A DNA stretch of 64,000 nt, taken from IMG/VR virus record IMGVR_UViG_2799112265_000002, positions 41,652 to 105,651 of that record; one strand, written 5' to 3'. Both the position numbers and the translations under genes were made by a program. The stretch is from a virus. Taxonomy: Duplodnaviria; Caudoviricetes. The notes under the pieces were generated by a model. The model did not search any database, was not told where the DNA came from, and saw only the letters and a list, made by a program, of their open reading frames with translations. Positions 18,239 to 59,889 of this stretch are shown here, one piece after another (the first letter of the stretch is position 1; the number at the start of each line of letters is the position of its first letter).

Positions 18239-18538
18239 ATGGGAGTTCAGTACGACGACGAGGGGGCCGGTAACGAGGCCATCCTGCGCGTCAAGAGTTC
18301 TTCGAGCGCGGCCAGCCTGGCCAGCGCCATCTCTCACGCCGTTTATGACGGCAAGCGGGTGACCCTACGAGCCATCGGGGCCGGAGCGGTAAATCAAGCC
18401 ATGAAGGCCATCGCCATCGCGAACTCGTTCGTGGCGCCCCGCGGAATCGTGCTCGACTGCCGGCCCGGATTTACCACCGTCACCACGCAGGATGCCGGAG
18501 ATATCTCCGCGCTGCTGCTGCGGATCTTCGTCCACTGA
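18239..18538 (+). CDS. spoVS: SpoVS-like (Alba-fold) protein
   Basis: LRVKSSSSAASLASAI...RAIGAGAVNQAMKAIAIA..F...G..L.C.PGF matches SpoVS. Confidence 0.85.
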   Translation: MGVQYDDEGAGNEAILRVKSSSSAASLASAISHAVYDGKRVTLRAIGAGAVNQAMKAIAIANSFVAPRGIVLDCRPGFTTVTTQDAGDISALLLRIFVH

Positions 18539-22234: not shown

Positions 22235-23218
22235 ATGTCCCTCCACGGAGTCGACCTCTCCAACAACAACGACGCGGCGCACGTCGCGTCCGCCATCGCG
22301 AGCAAGACCAACGCCTTCATCATCGCCAAGGCATCCGAGGGTGAGCACACGGGCGACGCGAAGCACGCCGGCATCGTCAAGGCGGCCCGCACCGCACGGA
22401 AGGCCGTCGGCCACTACCACTTCGGGCACCCCACCCAGGACCCGATCACCGAGGCCAAGCACTTCCTCGCCGCTGCCGGCGCGCAGGTGGGCGAGGTCCT
22501 GGCGCTCGACCTGGAGGCCTCCGAGGGCACCTGGCACCAGCGTCTCGACTACGCGCTGAAGTTCCTGGCGTACGTGAAGGCGCAGACGAAGGCGTCTCCG
22601 CTGTTCTACACGTACACCTCGTACATCACCGGCCTGCTGTCGGTGGCGACGGCCGAGCAGGCCAAGGAGTTGAAGGCCTACCCGCTGTGGGCGGCTGACC
22701 CGAACAACCCTGCCGGTCACCCGGCTATCGAGGGCTGGGGTGTGTGGACGATCCACCAGTACGGGATCGTCAGCAACATCGACCAGAACATGCTGAACGG
22801 CGACCTTAATACCTGGAAGGCCCTGGCCATCCCGGCTCCGGCGCCCAAGCCTGCTCCGGCCCCTGCTCCGGCTCCCAAGCCGACCCCTGCTCCGGCCCCT
22901 GCTCCTGCTCCAACCCCTGTGAAGGCGTACACCATGGTCATCTTCGGTATCGGCAGTGACGCGATGACGGCCGCCGCGGCTTGCGAGTCGTTCCAGCCCA
23001 AGGGTGCGGTCGCCACAGCCCGCCTGGACGTCGCCCAGGCTGCACTGAAGGCGGGTGACCAGGTCATCGCGGTCGGCGGCCCGGCCAACACCGCGATCGG
23101 CTTCAAGCACGCCAAGGCCGGCACCGTCGCCGTCTCCGGCAAGCAGATCGCCGTCCAGGGCGCCACGGCCGGCGACTCCTACGTCCTGCTCGGCCGCTAC
23201 CTGGCCACCGGCAAGTAA
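22235..23218 (+). CDS. endolysin (GH25 muramidase, Pro-Ala linker, cell-wall-binding tail)
   Basis: GVDLS, AKASEG, GHYHF, LDLE, HQY..IDQN and a (PA)n linker. Confidence 0.9.
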   Translation: MSLHGVDLSNNNDAAHVASAIASKTNAFIIAKASEGEHTGDAKHAGIVKAARTARKAVGHYHFGHPTQDPITEAKHFLAAAGAQVGEVLALDLEASEGTWHQRLDYALKFLAYVKAQTKASPLFYTYTSYITGLLSVATAEQAKELKAYPLWAADPNNPAGHPAIEGWGVWTIHQYGIVSNIDQNMLNGDLNTWKALAIPAPAPKPAPAPAPAPKPTPAPAPAPAPTPVKAYTMVIFGIGSDAMTAAAACESFQPKGAVATARLDVAQAALKAGDQVIAVGGPANTAIGFKHAKAGTVAVSGKQIAVQGATAGDSYVLLGRYLATGK

Positions 23219-49474: not shown

Positions 49475-50584
49475 ATGGCGCACCTGTACGACCTGTTCAA
49501 GCCCAAGGACCTGCTCGACAACCTCGGTAAGGGGTACGTCCGGACGCAGACCAGCCCGGACGGCAGCCGCGTCATCTTCAACTACACGAACCAGACCCAG
49601 TACGAGGGCGCCTGGAACGAGGTCACCAAGCAGACCCGCGGACTGATCATCGACTCCAAGACGGAGAAGATCGTCTCCCGGCCGTTCCAGAAGTTCTTCA
49701 ACTACGAGCAGTTGAACCACGCCGACCAGGCCGACCTGATGCACCACGAGGTGGAGACCTTCAAGAAGTGGGACGGCTCGCTGGGAGTCGGCTACACGCT
49801 TAATACCGGGGAGTTCCGCATCGCGACGCGGGGCTCCTTCACCTCCCCGCAGGCCGAGCACGCCAACCGGATCCTCACCGAGCGGTACCCGACCTTCGAG
49901 CCGATCCTGGGCCTGACGTACCTCTTCGAGATCGTCTACCCGGCCAACCGCGTCGTCGTCGACTACAAGGACCTGGACGACCTGGTCCTGCTCGCGGTGA
50001 TCAACACCGCGACCGGCCTCACGCTGGCCCACGGCGACTACGACTGGCCCGGCCCGGTCAACCAGCCGGTGCACTACAAGTCGCTGGGAGAGGTCCTGGC
50101 GAAGGTAGAGAACTGGCCGGATAAGAACGCCGAAGGCTTCGTCGTGCGCTTCCCGCACAACGACCTGCGGGTGAAGTTCAAGTACGACGAGTACAAGCGC
50201 CTGCACCGGATCCTGACGAACGTCTCCACGCTGTCGGTGTGGGAAGCGCTGGCCGCGGGCCAGGGCATCGGGGAGTTCATCGACCACGTGCCGGACGAGT
50301 TCTACTCCTGGGTCCACCAGCAGGTGCACCGGCTGGAGGCCGACTTCGACCGCGAGCATGCGGCCGTCCTCGACGACTACGAGTACATCGTCAGGCGCCT
50401 GCGCCGGCCGGAGACGGACGGCAAGAAGCGGCGCAAGGAGTTCGCGCTCCAGGCCCAGACGACGCCGTACCCGGGCCTGCTGTTCCGTCTCTACGACGGC
50501 CACGACATCACCGCGGACGTCTGGAAGCGGGTGCGCCCGGAGTTCGAGAAGCCGTTCTGGACGCCGTCGGAGGACGCCGCCTGA
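49475..50584 (+). CDS. RNA ligase 1 (T4 Rnl1-like)
   Basis: TRGLI...RPFQKFFNY, KWDGSLG, ATRGSF, EGFVV, RVKFK. Confidence 0.9.
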   Translation: MAHLYDLFKPKDLLDNLGKGYVRTQTSPDGSRVIFNYTNQTQYEGAWNEVTKQTRGLIIDSKTEKIVSRPFQKFFNYEQLNHADQADLMHHEVETFKKWDGSLGVGYTLNTGEFRIATRGSFTSPQAEHANRILTERYPTFEPILGLTYLFEIVYPANRVVVDYKDLDDLVLLAVINTATGLTLAHGDYDWPGPVNQPVHYKSLGEVLAKVENWPDKNAEGFVVRFPHNDLRVKFKYDEYKRLHRILTNVSTLSVWEALAAGQGIGEFIDHVPDEFYSWVHQQVHRLEADFDREHAAVLDDYEYIVRRLRRPETDGKKRRKEFALQAQTTPYPGLLFRLYDGHDITADVWKRVRPEFEKPFWTPSEDAA

Positions 50585-50883
50585 TGGAGCCCGACGACTT
50601 CGGCGGGTGGTTCGAGGAAGCGGAGCTGGTGGGCGGGCAGAAGCTGCTCGCCCACCCCCGTAAGGACTGCCTGGGCCGGCACTGCTGCATCCACAACCCC
50701 TCCGAGCACCACATGCGCGAGTGGCCGCAGAACTTCCGGCCGGACAAGACGCTCACCGAGCGGATCTGTCCCCACGGGTTCGGTCACCCCGACCCAGACG
50801 ACCTCGAATACAAGCGGATCTACGTCGGCAGGTGGGAGTACCTGGTCGCCGAGGTCCACGGCTGCGACGGGTGCTGCCAGTGA
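50584..50883 (+). CDS. Cys/His-rich small protein
   Basis: C...CCIHNPS.HH...ERICPHG.GHPDPD...HGCDGCC. Confidence 0.7.
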   Translation: MEPDDFGGWFEEAELVGGQKLLAHPRKDCLGRHCCIHNPSEHHMREWPQNFRPDKTLTERICPHGFGHPDPDDLEYKRIYVGRWEYLVAEVHGCDGCCQ

Positions 50884-50927
50884 CCGTGAAGTGCCTGTGC
50901 TGCCGTCCCACCACGAAGGAGAAGCCT

Positions 50928-51797
50928 GTGACCACCCTGACCATGACCAAGGGCCTGCCGGGCTCGGGGAAGACCACCTGGGCCCGGGAGCAGGTGCTCA
51001 AGGCCATCCCGGGCTCGGTCGTCATCGTCTGCAAGGACGACCTGCGGGCGATGCTGCACGCCGACCGCTTCCACGGCAAGCACGAGCGGCAGATCGTCAA
51101 GGCCCGCGACACGATGGTGGAGATGTTCCTGCTCCAGGGGGTCTCCGTGATCGTCGCGGACACCAACCTCAACCCGGCCCACGAGGAGCGGCTGGCCCGC
51201 ATCGCGGAGGGCAAGGGGGCGCGGTTCTTCGTCAAGGACTTCACCGACGTCTCGCTTAATACCTGCGTCCGCCGCGACCTGAAGCGGGAGAAGAGCGTCG
51301 GCGAGAAGGTCATCAGGGACATGTACGAGAAGTACCTGGCCCCCAAGCCTGCCGACCCTCCGGAGTACCTCCACGGCCGGCCGCACGCCGTCCTGGTGGA
51401 CCTCGACGGCACGCTGGCCAAGATGGCCGACCGCAGCCCCTTCGACTGGGACCGCGTGGACGAGGACGACGCGCACCAGGACGTCGTCGACCTGGTGAAC
51501 ACCCTGCGGGACGCGGGCGCCGAGATCGTCTTCGTCTCCGGCCGTGACGCTCGGGCCTACAAGCGGACCCGGTCCTGGCTGACGCAGCACGTGGGTGACT
51601 GGACGAGCCTGTCCCCGCTGCTGATGCGCTCCGAGTACGACATGCGCAAGGACTCGATCGTGAAGGAGGAGATCTACCGACAGGAGATCCTGGGACGCTA
51701 CAACGTGTGGCTGGTCCTGGACGACCGCGACCAGGTCGTCGACATGTGGCGCAATCTCGGCTTGCGTGTCCTCCAGGTGGCGCCCGGAAACTTCTGA
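50928..51797 (+). CDS. pseT: polynucleotide 5'-kinase / 3'-phosphatase
   Basis: GLPGSGKTT kinase plus DLDGTL, VSGR and LDDR HAD phosphatase motifs. Confidence 0.93.
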   Translation: MTTLTMTKGLPGSGKTTWAREQVLKAIPGSVVIVCKDDLRAMLHADRFHGKHERQIVKARDTMVEMFLLQGVSVIVADTNLNPAHEERLARIAEGKGARFFVKDFTDVSLNTCVRRDLKREKSVGEKVIRDMYEKYLAPKPADPPEYLHGRPHAVLVDLDGTLAKMADRSPFDWDRVDEDDAHQDVVDLVNTLRDAGAEIVFVSGRDARAYKRTRSWLTQHVGDWTSLSPLLMRSEYDMRKDSIVKEEIYRQEILGRYNVWLVLDDRDQVVDMWRNLGLRVLQVAPGNF

Positions 51798-53161: not shown

Positions 53162-53274
53162 TCGTTGTCAAGAACTGCCTGCGAAACGCTTGACAGAACG
53201 CGTAATCCGGAAGCAGTATGTCGGCATGCCTCGTGCTGCTTCCGGTGCGGGGTCGTCGAGAGATTGAGGGAGTC

Positions 53275-53646
53275 ATGGGCGAGCGCGTCAGAAAGTTCTG
53301 CGACCGCAAGGTGAAGCGGGGCAGGAAGGCCGAGGTCTGTGGCCAGGACGTGCCCAACGACGAGTCCACGGTCTTCCAGATCGGTACCACCCGGTACGAG
53401 GCGGACCTGTGCCAGGAGCACCAGGACGAGATGCTGGAGGCCATGGAGCCCTACACGTCCATCGCCCACACGGCCCGCAAGCGCGTCGGTACACAGGTGC
53501 GCAAGGCCATCCAGGGTAAGGGCGGCCAGGCATTCACAGCTCAGGACGTCCGCCAGTGGCTGCGCGAGGAGCGCGGCTACGACGTGCCGGACACCGGCCG
53601 GCTGACCAAGGCCTGGATCGAGGAGTTCGAGGCGGCCCACCAGTAG
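53275..53646 (+). CDS. lsr2: Lsr2-like nucleoid-associated protein
   Basis: F.I..TRYEADLC.EH...VRQWLRE.GYDVPDTGRL. Confidence 0.8.
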   Translation: MGERVRKFCDRKVKRGRKAEVCGQDVPNDESTVFQIGTTRYEADLCQEHQDEMLEAMEPYTSIAHTARKRVGTQVRKAIQGKGGQAFTAQDVRQWLREERGYDVPDTGRLTKAWIEEFEAAHQ

Positions 53647-54080
53647 CTTTCATCCGCCTCAGCGAGGGTCGGAGGACCACAGGTCCCCCGGCCCTTTTTC
53701 GCGCCCGAGAACAGTGTCCTACCCCCCGCCTCGCGCGAGGAGAGGGGGCAGTGGCCTGCGATTACAAACACGTAATCGTGATCGTGTAGAAAAGACTCAT
53801 GCAGATGAGCGAGCGACAGCCGGCCCAGGGGAACCACCTCCCCTCCGCCAGCCTGCCCATGCTCGTCCTCCCGGTCCACGAGGCATTCTGCCTGGGCCGC
53901 GGCGCGTTCCCCGCCCGCTAGGGCAGCTCCTGGTACCTCACCGCCAGTTGCAGCGTAAGACCCAGCGGGGAACCCTTCCCAACGTTGTCCAGTTAGTTGC
54001 TCGATGTGCTTGACAAGCCATAGTGCTGATACGGTAAGTTGTACAACGTTCTTCAAAGGTGTTCTACGGAACGTCTTCTT

Positions 54081-54154
54081 CTGGATGTAGCGCAGCCCGG
54101 TAGCGCGCCTGCTTTGGATGCAGGGGGTCGCAGGTTCGAATCCTGCCATCCAGA
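54081..54154 (+). tRNA. tRNA-Pro(TGG)
   Basis: CTGGATG/CATCCAG acceptor; CCTGC-TTTGGAT-GCAGG; TTCGAAT T-loop. Confidence 0.95.
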
Positions 54155-54159
54155 CTCAA

Positions 54160-54232
54160 GGCCCTTTGGCAGAGGAAGTTAATGCGCCCGCCTGAAAAGC
54201 GGGAGATCTTGGTGCGATTCCAAGGGGGGCCA
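54160..54232 (+). tRNA. tRNA-Phe(GAA)
   Basis: GGCCCTT/GGGGGCC acceptor; CCCGC-CTGAAAA-GCGGG; variant T-loop TGCGATT. Confidence 0.8.
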
Positions 54233-54242
54233 CTTTGTCCAG

Positions 54243-54387
54243 ACGCCGAGCCCTGTTCCTGGACAAAAACTGCAATCAACCCTGAACAGGGGCGGGAGAC
54301 CGAAACGCATTACTGGGGCGAATCCGCAGAACCTGTGTGGTAGGGAGCAGCACTTATCCCGAGTCCGTCACCTAATCTCGTAGGCGT
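54243..54387 (+). ncRNA. c-di-AMP (ydaO/yuaA) riboswitch
   Basis: ACGCC/GGCGT closing stem; TGGGGCGAATCC, GTAGGG and CCCGAGTCCGTCACCTAATCTCGTAGGCG blocks; directly upstream of a cell-wall hydrolase. Confidence 0.85.
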
Positions 54388-54400
54388 ACGGAGTGCAATC

Positions 54401-55027
54401 ATGAATAAGAGGATCGCTGGACTCGTTCTCGCGGGCGCACTGGCCCTTTCCCCTCTCGCGGCTTCGGTAGCGGACGCGGAATCCAGTTACGTGACCGTGA
54501 AGAGCGGACAGACCCTGAGCGGGATCGCATCGGCCCACAGGACGACGTATCAGCACCTCGCGTCCATCAATCACATATCCAACCCCAGTCGTATCTACCC
54601 CGGCGAGAGGATCTACCTGACCGCCGGCTCAGCGCCCGCGCCGGCCAAGCCCAAGCCCAAGCCCACCAGCTCGACCTCGTCGGGCACGCGAATCGTCAAC
54701 CAGGCCGCCAAGTACATCGGCACCCCGTACGTATGGGGCGGCTCCTCGACCAAGGGAATGGACTGCTCGGGCCTGACGTACGCCACGTTCAAGGCTCTGG
54801 GGAAGTCCCTCCCGCGGGTCGCGTCCAGCCAGTACCACGCCAGCAAGAAGGTCAGCTCGCCCCAGAAGGGTGACCTGGTCTTCGTCCACGACGGATCCGG
54901 CAGCGTCTACCACGTCGCCATCTACGTGAATTCCACGACGTGGCTGGAGTCGGAGCACCCGGGTGCGGGTGTCAACTACTACCACCCGTGGTCGAAGTCC
55001 GTTTACTACGGACGGATCGCGGTGTAG
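54401..55027 (+). CDS. secreted LysM + NlpC/P60 peptidoglycan endopeptidase
   Basis: Signal peptide; VKSGQTLSGIA...IYPGE LysM; PYVWGG...DCSGL...HVAIY. Confidence 0.93.
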   Translation: MNKRIAGLVLAGALALSPLAASVADAESSYVTVKSGQTLSGIASAHRTTYQHLASINHISNPSRIYPGERIYLTAGSAPAPAKPKPKPTSSTSSGTRIVNQAAKYIGTPYVWGGSSTKGMDCSGLTYATFKALGKSLPRVASSQYHASKKVSSPQKGDLVFVHDGSGSVYHVAIYVNSTTWLESEHPGAGVNYYHPWSKSVYYGRIAV

Positions 55028-55080
55028 TAGGGTCCATTGCAGGAAAGGCCGGAGGGAATTTCGAGGTTCCTCCGGCCCCC

Positions 55081-55160
55081 GCCCGAGTAGACGAATGGCA
55101 CAGTCAACCGCCTCAAAAGCGGTGCCGGAAGGCGTGTGGGTTCGAGTCCCACCTTGGGTA
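55081..55160 (+). tRNA. tRNA-Leu(CAA)
   Basis: GCCCGAG/CTTGGGT acceptor; ACCGC-CTCAAAA-GCGGT; long variable arm. Confidence 0.9.
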
Positions 55161-55234
55161 CGCAGGGAAGGCCGACGGACGAGGCTTAGGCCGGTAAATT
55201 CCGGGTGGGTGGCGAGCGGTCGAGACTTCCCCGT

Positions 55235-55307
55235 TCCTCCATAGCTCAATTGGCAGAGCAGACGGCTGTTAACCGTCAGGTTCCTGGTTCGAGTCCAGGT
55301 GGGGGAG
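55235..55307 (+). tRNA. tRNA-Asn(GTT)
   Basis: TCCTCCA/TGGGGGA acceptor; GACGG-CTGTTAA-CCGTC; TTCGAGT T-loop. Confidence 0.95.
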
Positions 55308-55370
55308 CAACACCTTGGGATGGGTGTAGTTAAAGGGCTGAGCCCCGGTGAACCGAATGGTCGCCGGGGC

Positions 55371-55658
55371 TTAGTCGTCTCCGATGCCGGTCACGACGAA
55401 CGTGAGCAGACCACACACGGTCGTTACCCCCAGCAGGGCCGGCCAGTGGGCGGACAGTAGCCCCAGGCCGGCCGTGATACCCCACGCCACGTGCTTGACC
55501 GTCCAGACAGTGACCTGCTCCGGCGCCTCGTCGTCGGCCGGGGAGGGAGCCGGCCCGCCGCGGCGGTGGGCACTCAGGTGCCGCTGCTTGTCGACGGCCG
55601 CGTCCACCTCGGTGTCGGACATGCCCCAGTCGTTGCAGCGGTCGCAGTACCAGATCAC
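55371..55658 (-). CDS. small membrane protein with zinc-finger-like N-terminus
   Basis: WYCDRC...H...H followed by two hydrophobic helices. Confidence 0.5.
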   Translation of the reverse strand: MIWYCDRCNDWGMSDTEVDAAVDKQRHLSAHRRGGPAPSPADDEAPEQVTVWTVKHVAWGITAGLGLLSAHWPALLGVTTVCGLLTFVVTGIGDD

Positions 55659-55800
55659 AGCGCACCCCCATTCTTCATTACGCGTTTCAAAGCACTTCAG
55701 GATAGGCCTCGGCCTGCTCTGACCTGCTAACTTGCACTCTGGCCACCACCGGAGGAGCGCTCACTGCTAGAGTGAAACCCGTTCACTCCTGGAGTGAACG

Positions 55801-55830
55801 TTGACATGAAAGACGTAATGGATATAGCGT
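55801..55830 (+). promoter_or_regulatory. sigma70-type promoter with AGACGTAAT in the spacer
   Basis: TTGACA 55801, 18-bp spacer, TAGCGT 55825. Confidence 0.7.
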
Positions 55831-55887
55831 AAGCGGACGCCGGGTCGACAGGCCCGGAACCACCAACCCCCTGCGAGAGGAACCCCC

Positions 55888-57126
55888 TTGAGCGCCCTTA
55901 CCGAGCACGTCGAGATCGACTGGGTCCGCGACATCCTCATGGACCCCGAGGTCGGTCACCAGGCCGCCGCGGACGACCTCATCTTCAACGGGATCGACAC
56001 CTCCGAGACGGCTGTACGGCGCTGGCGCAAGGCCAACGGCTACAAGAAGGCCATCCTGGTCGAGCCGGGCAAGGAGCCGAAGCGGCTTAATACCCTGCCC
56101 GAGGAGGGCACGGCCGAGGCAGTGGCCGAGAACGAGGCGCTGAGGGAACGCGTGGACGCCCTCACGGCCGACAACCGGCGCCTGTTCCAGAACTACAGCA
56201 AGGCGAAGGCCCGCGGCGACGAATACATCCAGGCCGTCTACCAGGCCGCCCGGGACGCCGCCCAGTTCGTAGGACAGACCCCCGTGGCCCCGCCGAAGGC
56301 CGACCGCCGCACCAAGGCCGCCGAGGTCGCCCTGTGGCACCTCACCGACTGGCAGGGCGGCAAGAAGACCCTCACCTACGACCGCACCATCATGCGCACC
56401 CGCGTGATGCGGTACGTGGAGAAGGCCCACGAGATCACCGACATCCAGCGCGCCGACCACCCCGTCCGTAAGGGCGTCTTGCTCTTCACCGGAGACATGG
56501 TCGAGGGTGTCTCCATCTTCCCGGGCCAGGTCTGGGAACTCGACGGCACGCTCTATGAGCAGATGTTCGACGTCTCCGACCTGATGCTCTGGACGATCCG
56601 GCAGGCCCTCCAGATCTACGAGGAGGTCGAGGTCGTCGCCGAGTACGGCAACCACGGCCGCCTGGGCAAGAAGTCCGACGGCATCAAGGCCTCCGACAAC
56701 GTCGACCGCATGGTCTACAACATCGTCCGCGAGCGCCTGGCCGACGAGGAGCGCCTGACGAAGTTCCAGACGAGCGGGGACTGGTACCAGCACTTCACCA
56801 TCGGCAACTACAGGGCGATGGCCATCCACGGCGACGAGATCAAGTCCTTCGGGGGCAACATTCCGGCATACGGAATTTTGCGGAAGGCCAACCAGTGGGC
56901 CTCCGGCGTCCTGCCGGCCTTCAAGGACCTGTACATCGGCCACTACCACCAGTCCATGCAGTTGCAGTTGGCCAACGGCGGCTCCGTCTTCATGACCGGC
57001 AGCCCGGAGAGCGACAACATCTACGCCCACGAGTTCGTCGCGGCCACGGGAGACCCCTCCCAGCGCCTGCACTTCATCCACCCCGAGAAGGGACGCGTCA
57101 CCAGTGAGCACCGCATCTGGCTCTGA
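55888..57126 (+). CDS. calcineurin-like metallophosphoesterase
   Basis: TDWQ, GDMVEG, GNHGR, IHGD, GHYH. Confidence 0.85.
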   Translation: MSALTEHVEIDWVRDILMDPEVGHQAAADDLIFNGIDTSETAVRRWRKANGYKKAILVEPGKEPKRLNTLPEEGTAEAVAENEALRERVDALTADNRRLFQNYSKAKARGDEYIQAVYQAARDAAQFVGQTPVAPPKADRRTKAAEVALWHLTDWQGGKKTLTYDRTIMRTRVMRYVEKAHEITDIQRADHPVRKGVLLFTGDMVEGVSIFPGQVWELDGTLYEQMFDVSDLMLWTIRQALQIYEEVEVVAEYGNHGRLGKKSDGIKASDNVDRMVYNIVRERLADEERLTKFQTSGDWYQHFTIGNYRAMAIHGDEIKSFGGNIPAYGILRKANQWASGVLPAFKDLYIGHYHQSMQLQLANGGSVFMTGSPESDNIYAHEFVAATGDPSQRLHFIHPEKGRVTSEHRIWL

Positions 57127-58793: not shown

Positions 58794-58994
58794 TCAGGCG
58801 CTGTACTGACCGTCCTTGACGCCCTCGACGAAGGCACCCCAGGCGGACGTGGGGAAGCCCAGGATCGGGCCCGCCGTGTCCTTGGAGTCCCGTACATAGC
58901 GGGCGCCGTCGGTGTCGGCGACCTCGACGCACTCGCCGGCACCGTTGCTGAAGCTGCTCTTCTTCCAGACCAGCTTGTCGTCGTTACCCTGCAT
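58794..58994 (-). CDS. DUF397 (BldB-like) protein
   Basis: WKKSSFS...CVEVA...VRDSKD..GP.L.F...W.AF. Confidence 0.92.
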   Translation of the reverse strand: MQGNDDKLVWKKSSFSNGAGECVEVADTDGARYVRDSKDTAGPILGFPTSAWGAFVEGVKDGQYSA

Positions 58995-59889
58995 GGCTGT
59001 ATTCCTCTGCGATGGATCTGATCATGGCGATGGACTTCTCCGGCCGCTCCGAGGCAGCGACCAGCCGCTGGAAAATGTCTTCGTGACGGCGAAGGTCCGA
59101 TTCCTTGTCCAGGTACGTAGCGCTGGTGGGCCCCTCCGAATAGACGATGGATCCTGGGATGTCCTCGAAGGACAGGACAAGGAAGCTGTATCCCATCGAC
59201 TGGTGTGCCCCGGCGTCGAAGGGGAGTACCTGAACAGTGACGTTCGGAAGTGTCTCAGCACGATCCGCCAGCGACACAAGCTGCTCACGCATGACGTCCG
59301 GTGAGCCCACGATCCGGCGGACCACTGCCTCGTTGAGGATGGCCCACAGCCGGGGCGGGTGCCCCGACGTCAGGACGTCCTGGCGCTTGATCCGTGCACT
59401 TGCACGAGCCTCCACCTCGTCGACTGAAAGTTCGGGCTCCAAGGCCCGGATCACAGCCTGCGCGTAACGCTCGGTTTGCAGCAGGCCGGGCACCAGCTCG
59501 GTCTGGCACGCCAGGATCGACGCGGCGTCCGACTCGAAGCCGAGGTACGGCTTGAACCACTCCGGCAGGGCGTCCCCGTAGGAGTGCCACCAGCCGTTCT
59601 GCCGGCTCTGCCGGGTCAGTCCGATGAACTGCCGGACTTCCTCGGGATCGTCAACTCCGTACTCGGCCAGCAGAAGTTTGGCATCCTGGTCAGACAGCGG
59701 GGACTTGCCCCCTTCGATCCGGCTGACCTTGGACTCGGACCACCCGAGCTGCTTGGCAACCTGCGCAGCGGAGAGGTTCTTCGCCCGGCGCAAGTTGCGC
59801 AGCTCTCCACCGAGCCGGCGCCTCAGCACGGTCGGACTGGCTGCCAACGTGACCTCCCAGGTTGCGGGTACTGCTGCACAGTCTGCCAC
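58984..59889 (-). CDS. XRE HTH + DUF5753 (WhiJ-like) regulator
   Basis: RRRLGGELRNLR...SKVSRIEGG...VPGLLQTERYA...E.VVRR..G...QL. Confidence 0.92.
   Translation of the reverse strand: MADCAAVPATWEVTLAASPTVLRRRLGGELRNLRRAKNLSAAQVAKQLGWSESKVSRIEGGKSPLSDQDAKLLLAEYGVDDPEEVRQFIGLTRQSRQNGWWHSYGDALPEWFKPYLGFESDAASILACQTELVPGLLQTERYAQAVIRALEPELSVDEVEARASARIKRQDVLTSGHPPRLWAILNEAVVRRIVGSPDVMREQLVSLADRAETLPNVTVQVLPFDAGAHQSMGYSFLVLSFEDIPGSIVYSEGPTSATYLDKESDLRRHEDIFQRLVAASERPEKSIAMIRSIAEEYSHAG

Follow-up and report, generated by a model that had tools for sequence, protein, structure and literature searches.

The DNA analysed here, referred to as the window, makes up the right-hand 64 kb of a 105,651-bp virus record, a provirus according to IMG/VR. 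Scanning the whole window against Rfam 15 with cmscan gave five matches at the gathering score, namely four tRNAs and the c-di-AMP riboswitch family RF00379. The riboswitch match, at 54261-54400 (+), scores 59.6 bits where the gathering score is 38 (E 2.7e-11), and spans positions 1-134 of the 134-position model. This covariance check bears out the original prediction, in which a ydaO-type riboswitch had been called at this site, and ARAGORN and Pfam agree with the setting it had described, within a tRNA cluster and between tRNA-Phe and a LysM-NlpC/P60 gene. The locus and the one distant gene relevant to it comprise the following features.

54081..54155 (+): tRNA-Pro (TGG); ARAGORN, Rfam tRNA 69.1 bits
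54160..54233 (+): tRNA-Phe (GAA), whose 3' end adjoins the riboswitch leader; ARAGORN and Rfam
54243..54387 (+): c-di-AMP (ydaO-type) aptamer, P1 to P1; RF00379 and comparative analysis
54390..54393 (+): Shine-Dalgarno sequence GGAG, 7 nt ahead of the ATG; from the sequence, invariant in 15/15 leaders
54401..55027 (+): hydrolase, 208 aa, signal-peptide-like N-terminus, LysM and NlpC/P60; Pfam and orthologue alignment
55047..55077 (+): G+C-rich hairpin after the hydrolase stop codon, 3 nt ahead of tRNA-Leu, without a U-tract; folding
55081..55161 (+): tRNA-Leu (CAA); ARAGORN and Rfam
55235..55308 (+): tRNA-Asn (GTT); ARAGORN and Rfam
22235..23215 (+): GH25 lysin, a separate candidate lysis enzyme; Pfam Glyco_hydro_25, 79.9 bits

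The hydrolase gene and its neighbours

Both domains of the hydrolase lie well above their Pfam cut-offs (LysM, residues 32-73, 46.6 bits against 20.9; NlpC/P60, PF00877, residues 107-193, 80.7 bits against 23). They follow an N-terminus that by eye resembles a Sec signal peptide and is kept among orthologues, in keeping with the secreted LysM-NlpC/P60 enzyme that had been expected directly downstream of the riboswitch. The Cys of a DCSG motif and the His of a YHV motif, which we take to be the catalytic residues, are invariant in the alignment of 8/8 orthologues, and relatives of the protein in the PDB are 4xcm and LytE 8i2e. Orthologues differ in the LysM domain, through loss or gain: those that carry it (window, L002, L004 and L031) measure 206-219 aa, and those without it (L005, L006, L008, L034, L036 and L041) about 164 aa, with the signal peptide, the catalytic domain and the riboswitch retained in all. 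The enzyme had also been held to be distinct from the GH25 endolysin, and a GH25 lysin is indeed encoded elsewhere in the window, at 22235-23215.

The close abutment of tRNA and leader recurs in four relatives (L002, L004, L005 and L008), in which a tRNA likewise ends 0-1 nt ahead of the leader. One of these, the viral contig L004, is devoid of tRNA-Phe and has tRNA-Pro adjoining the leader instead, which indicates that the conserved element is the tRNA-leader junction and not the identity of the tRNA. On the other side of the gene, the segment 55028-55082 folds with -25.7 kcal/mol (z -2.26; 7/200 shuffles as stable); its hairpin at 55047-55077 is not among the terminator calls and may have a role in processing or stability.

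Genes for a T4 Rnl1-like RNA ligase and a polynucleotide kinase/phosphatase lie at 49475-51794, just upstream of the tRNA array, and look like a tRNA-repair pair beside phage tRNAs. The window also encodes an Lsr2-like nucleoid protein, a SpoVS homologue and a DUF397/HTH_31 (WhiJ/BldB-like) pair (53218-53643, 18239-18535 and 58797-59889 (-)), which are regulators of host-development type carried on a phage.

Structure and conservation of the aptamer

The bounds of the aptamer given by comparative analysis, 54243-54387, differ from the cmscan bounds (54261-54400), and the start at 54243 is the one that had been proposed originally. The closing stem, placed by covariation, pairs ACGCC (54243-47) with GGCGU (54383-87). 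Its end at 54387 leaves 13 nt to the ATG at 54401 and a gap of 2 nt to the GGAG at 54390-93, exactly the spacing beside the ribosome-binding site that had been noted earlier. In the cmscan alignment the conserved blocks of RF00379 are found in the phage aptamer and a few highly conserved consensus positions deviate; one such departure is a C for U in the block GGGG(U/C)GAAUC. The structural elements are as follows.

54235..54266 (+): helix X, 5' arm 54235-54242 (UUGUCCAG) with 3' arm 54259-54266 (CUGGACAA, in the P2 loop); covariation
54243-47/54383-87 (+): P1; covariation
54251-58/54284-91 (+): P2, 8 bp, with a 25-nt loop; covariation
54292-97/54376-81 (+): P3; as in the Rfam model
54316-18/54364-66 (+): P5; as in the Rfam model
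54324-27/54337-40 (+): P6; as in the Rfam model
54343-46/54357-60 (+): P7; as in the Rfam model
54350..54396 (+): putative pseudoknot, P7 loop GCACUU (54350-55) with GAGUGC (54391-96); complementarity

This structure was examined in an alignment of 15 distinct leaders, all close relatives (14 from viral contigs, and L163). Pairing is kept in 99.3% of 566 cells, as compared with 39-47% in slid controls, and in 98-100% of cells for each of P1-P3 and P5-P7. Double changes affect four pairs, of which P1 and P2 contain one each and helix X two, and single changes compatible with wobble pairing occur in P3, P5, P6 and P7; of the seven compensatory cells, three stem from the single sequence L163. None of 500 column shuffles equalled the observed pairing and double changes, a comparison that ignores relatedness, which alone can beat such shuffles. 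The local P1 and P2 of the Rfam alignment (UGCA at 54271-74, and a CCC/GGG mini-hairpin) were set aside in favour of the upstream P1 and the long P2, its P1 being paired in 61% of cells.

Conservation of the leader is on a par with that of the neighbouring tRNAs: it is 84-94% identical to three relatives, whereas the ORF reaches 65-85% and the spacers on either side 32-57%. The free MFE of the leader is not more stable than that of shuffled sequences (z 0.19). From these comparative data, the leader RNA is under selection, and the phage RNA is, as judged by sequence, genuine, selected and encoded by the phage; it belongs to the c-di-AMP riboswitch family and has a clade-specific 5' helix.

A clade-specific helix at the 5' end

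Helix X starts 1-2 nt past the tRNA 3' end and crosses P1 and P2, the 5' strands of which lie between its arms; it is specific to the clade and falls outside the Rfam model. Its pairing is kept in 99.2% of cells across the 15 distinct leaders, with two pairs altered on both sides in L163, and it is present in the free MFE fold of 9/9 leaders folded. By the pattern of substitutions, helix X is under selection as well. It could represent an alternative, ligand-free fold or a clamp on P1 and P2 in the manner of an H-type pseudoknot.

The octamer TTGTCCAG occurs at 7 sites in the window (53985-53992, 54235-42, 54259-66 and four more) against 1.46 expected, a count that 0/100 shuffles reach. An 11-nt near-repeat of the 5' arm of helix X lies about 90 nt upstream of tRNA-Pro, in an inverted repeat around a TTGACA box, and the repeated octamer may be an operator or promoter motif.

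Occurrence in other viruses

IMG/VR holds 24 related hydrolase loci. At all eight full-length loci (50-77% identity), RF00379 is directly upstream with 58.3-68.8 bits and the tRNA flanks are the same; at the twelve domain-only loci scanned it was found in none, the scan having covered 20 of the 24 loci. A census of IMG/VR was also carried out with two independent sequence patterns for the conserved aptamer blocks, and being based on pattern scans it gives a lower bound. The first pattern returned 14 stretches, all identified as RF00379 by cmscan, and the second returned 23, in which eight new contigs were judged by alignment to be seven clade members and one chance match; the latter (L142) has no 3' block and was dropped. 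The clade sharing the tRNA-riboswitch-hydrolase arrangement thereby amounts to 22 contigs including the window (21 others), with 14 distinct leaders. A scan of metagenomes with a clade-specific core pattern recovered one contig only, L163, a more divergent member of the clade with 56.3 bits. The 17 clade leaders scored by cmscan range from 56.3 to 71.9 bits.

Two viral matches do not belong to the clade (L033 and L039). Both lie near provirus ends beside host-type genes, one next to an amino-acid permease, the other next to a SleB-like hydrolase with a lactate/malate dehydrogenase alongside, and they are best read as host flank. Among cultured phages, RF00379 was found at 0/6 NlpC/P60 loci of Streptomyces phages (E up to 0.1). 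Megablast gave no close cultured phage, matching the tRNA-Asn segment only; distant blastn searches with the leader gave chance tRNA-like matches only, and no tblastn record obtained with the hydrolase covered 80% or more of the protein. Sequencing runs beyond the likely source assembly contain about 11-13% of the sampled words, a figure without bearing on habitat. In run X1, the likely source assembly, the prophage contig has a word depth of 250 and other contigs with tRNA-like words have 363-469; the latter may be repeats.

Expression platform and proposed mechanism

The putative pseudoknot, in which the P7 loop pairs with the 3' tail, overlaps the Shine-Dalgarno sequence and covers three of the four GGAG bases. 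All six of its pairs are invariant in 15/15 leaders, so that covariation within the clade is zero, and the adjacent loop and spacer bases vary. The survey was extended to 30 other RF00379 matches, with the anchor found in 24 and six left unanchored. Loop-tail complementarity of at least 5 contiguous bp within tail positions 1-12, involving differing sequences, was present in 24/24 anchored host matches, with single-sequence shuffle tests giving p<0.05 in only 5/24. A scan of 53600-55900 for promoter and terminator consensus sequences returned none, the consensus being uninformative for Streptomyces-type promoters. A different anti-Shine-Dalgarno pairing suggested by constrained folding, an extension of P1 in which UCC (54238-40) pairs with GGA (54390-92), was rejected as the main mechanism: in L163, the only relative that is informative here, two of its three pairs break and helix X compensates.

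In one study, two RNA libraries yielded contigs that are about 97-98% identical to the leader and bridge both the tRNA-Phe/leader junction (54177-54346 and 54180-54318) and the leader/ORF junction (54289-54434). They would fit co-transcription of tRNA, leader and mRNA in a related phage, with DNA carry-over as another possible source; such contigs reveal neither transcript ends nor abundance.

Based on the above data, we consider it fairly probable that this is a functional phage c-di-AMP riboswitch in which the ligand closes the aptamer and the pseudoknot, hides the Shine-Dalgarno sequence and turns off translation of the hydrolase. The aptamer would be transcribed jointly with the upstream tRNAs, probably as a leader that begins at the tRNA 3' end. 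Binding of host c-di-AMP would close the aptamer, including the P7-loop/3'-tail pseudoknot typical of the class, and the pairing of GCACUU with GAGUGC would sequester the Shine-Dalgarno sequence and shut off translation of the NlpC/P60 endopeptidase at high c-di-AMP; at low c-di-AMP, translation would be allowed. This OFF model is favoured by the invariant loop-tail pairing that overlaps the Shine-Dalgarno sequence, by the family-wide complementarity and by the precedent of C. glutamicum nlpC. Ligand binding and the OFF direction are put forward by analogy with characterised relatives, and we infer the translational level of control and the co-transcription with the tRNAs from the arrangement of the leader. 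The link that had been drawn to osmotic or germination state, like the timing of the hydrolase within the phage life cycle, is likewise suggested by analogy with host regulons.

A more speculative extension, to which we would give about one chance in several, is that the phage eavesdrops on host c-di-AMP to time its secreted endopeptidase, perhaps during lysogeny or in hyphae that are germinating or under osmotic stress, through a sensor wired into tRNA maturation. The leader would be freed from a tRNA-mRNA precursor, and only then would helix X become available or protected. We know of no described processing-dependent riboswitch of this kind.

The alternative that survives best, although we find it unlikely, is that the c-di-AMP aptamer is real but acts on transcript abundance, through non-canonical attenuation or RNA decay, and not on ribosome access. 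The S. coelicolor rpfA riboswitch, which is without a canonical terminator, is reported to alter transcript levels and not translation, as summarised by Reich et al. (PMC9960051). A leader whose 5' end would come from tRNA processing could be sensitive to RNase access, and helix X, at that very 5' end, is under selection. The gap between P1 and the ATG is nevertheless only 13 nt, no terminator-like element was found at the locus, and the Shine-Dalgarno sequence sits inside the conserved loop-tail pairing, all of which fits better with control of translation.

The opposite polarity, in which c-di-AMP would free the Shine-Dalgarno sequence and act as an ON signal, appears distinctly improbable. 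It draws on the free fold, which pairs the Shine-Dalgarno region with the 3' half of the aptamer (UCCGU, 54364-68), a partner that aptamer folding would take away: the Shine-Dalgarno bases are mostly paired in the unconstrained ensembles of most of nine leaders, and helix X, which would disfavour the aptamer, is found in every free MFE. The UCCGU:ACGGA pairing nonetheless loses one pair in most relatives, with a C opposite an A, and it is to the folded, ligand-bound aptamer that the pseudoknot containing the Shine-Dalgarno sequence belongs. Furthermore, the characterised actinobacterial examples are OFF switches (PMC9960051).

The drift of the aptamer to another ligand, such as pApA or a cyclic dinucleotide of anti-phage signalling, seems very improbable. 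The few departures at highly conserved consensus positions and the unusual phage context could be taken as hints of such a change, but all members score well above the family threshold, and the C-for-U departure is also present in a crystallised sequence that binds c-di-AMP, as printed in PMC5393176. Hardly any credence is due to a decaying relic, that is, an aptamer captured with a host gene whose function has been lost, since the leader is conserved like the tRNAs where the spacers and even the ORF diverge, compensatory changes maintain the pairing of P1, P2 and helix X, and the leader stays intact among orthologues that have lost or gained LysM.

Phage origin and host

The provirus class of the record and the position of both its ends at gene ends made it necessary to exclude a host-flank artefact, in which trimming would have left the riboswitch and hydrolase as host chromosome beside a prophage. 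By GC3, 121 ORFs were called in the record, 118 of which were scanned with Pfam. The left part encodes a serine recombinase, a tyrosine integrase, terminase, portal, capsid, sheath, tube and baseplate proteins, and the window encodes primase, an SNF2 helicase, PolA, RNR, RecA, ThyX, the GH25 lysin, RNA ligase, PNKP and Lsr2. Downstream of the tRNA/riboswitch block follow an exonuclease-like gene, MazG and more small genes. The record is a temperate prophage of about 105 kb and of myovirus type (contractile-tailed). Its two integrases adjoin each other left of the window (G000:C1:1-3519); the C-terminus of the large serine recombinase also matches an IS4/5 transposase domain (DUF4096), and the start of the record coincides exactly with the stop codon of this gene.

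The exonuclease-like gene is syntenic downstream of the module in 5/5 searched records, with only its first 51 residues matched, at the record end, in the fragmentary record G005. In a second, partly different set, 5/5 records encode both the terminase, at 85-90% identity, and the tyrosine integrase, at 68-72%; four of these five records, 104,853-110,248 bp long, have direct terminal repeats and an estimated completeness of 100%. These four complete genomes hold the module between phage genes, which places it inside phage genomes. Together with the rest of the 21 other viral contigs that carry the module, their possession of module, terminase and integrase upholds the earlier view that the riboswitch is phage-encoded. 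A search of 185,579 species-representative genomes for the hydrolase gave no close homologue: its best match reaches about 45% identity and is confined to the catalytic domain. We judge the trimming artefact already refuted by the synteny and the four terminal-repeat genomes, in spite of the provirus class, the record ends at gene ends and the resemblance of L033 and L039 to host flanks.

The host is most likely Streptomyces, on the basis of the G+C content of the record (65%), a tRNA-Asn that is 98.6% identical to tRNA-Asn of Streptomyces phages, tblastn searches with the hydrolase in which 121/214 records were Streptomyces phages, and the Streptomyces-typical domains SpoVS, Lsr2 and DUF397/HTH_31. 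A diadenylate cyclase domain was found in 0 of the 118 Pfam-scanned ORFs, so any c-di-AMP sensed would be that of the host.

Discussion

c-di-AMP is a signal linked to osmotic balance and wall homeostasis, and the mechanism of translational c-di-AMP switches is still unsettled in Actinobacteria. Searches of openly accessible full texts returned no report of a phage c-di-AMP riboswitch. As far as found, the phage context is new, and both the class of riboswitch and the class of target were already known; the advance is one of context and not of principle. A second-messenger riboswitch is a conserved and, from the comparative data, selected part of a whole phage clade, although riboswitches are considered rare in phages, and it lets the reading of host c-di-AMP by a virus be tested on a concrete example. 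By placing its secreted endopeptidase in the c-di-AMP wall-hydrolase regulon of the host, the phage would follow the host's own logic. The tRNA, the 5' helix, the aptamer and a Shine-Dalgarno sequence held in a pseudoknot also constitute a compact natural module for the study of translational c-di-AMP switches.

The nearest characterised system is the nlpC riboswitch of C. glutamicum (RSnlpC), an experimentally established translational OFF switch (Reich et al. 2023, PMC9960051), for which the authors proposed a pseudoknot pairing with the GGAG of the ribosome-binding site. Like the phage RNA, it places a ydaO-type aptamer directly upstream of an actinobacterial NlpC/P60 wall peptidase without a canonical terminator. 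Unlike the phage RNA, it is chromosomal, has no abutting tRNA and uses another anti-Shine-Dalgarno sequence, and is not known to have an equivalent of helix X.

Chromosomal riboswitches of Streptomyces provide a second comparison. Three genomes have 3-5 RF00379 matches each, 10/11 of them above threshold, and 9/10 of the latter precede wall hydrolases, these being M23 (5), Rpf-type transglycosylase-LysM (3) and NlpC/P60 (1) enzymes, with start codons 2-14 nt past the match. RF00379 was also found at 11/20 other actinobacterial NlpC/P60 loci, and the two surveys together substantiate the association of actinobacterial ydaO riboswitches with wall hydrolases that the original prediction had relied upon. 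The Streptomyces riboswitches share with the phage copy the Rfam family, the tight spacing of aptamer, Shine-Dalgarno sequence and start codon, secreted wall hydrolases as targets, a long P2 insertion and loop-tail complementarity. The phage copy differs in lying within a tRNA array and in having helix X; none of the 10 Streptomyces riboswitches examined comes near its aptamer in sequence, and the host genomes searched gave no close homologue of its hydrolase.

According to McCown et al. 2017 (PMC5473149), phage genomes seldom contain riboswitches, and the only phage examples listed in that survey are c-di-GMP-I riboswitches of Clostridioides difficile prophages and glutamine riboswitches of cyanophages. 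The former resemble the RNA described here as phage-carried sensors of a host second messenger; both belong to other classes, with other ligands and other hosts, than the c-di-AMP RNA (PMC5473149). At the structural level, the Thermoanaerobacter ydaO RNA that was crystallised (PDB 4QLM/4QLN) shares the conserved blocks and the P7-loop/3'-tail complementarity, as read from the sequence printed in PMC5393176. Judging by eye from the Rfam consensus and this printed sequence, that RNA seems to have no P2-type hairpin between the 5' strands of P1 and P3, where the phage RNA carries its 8-bp P2, whose 25-nt loop pairs with the leader's 5' end to form helix X.
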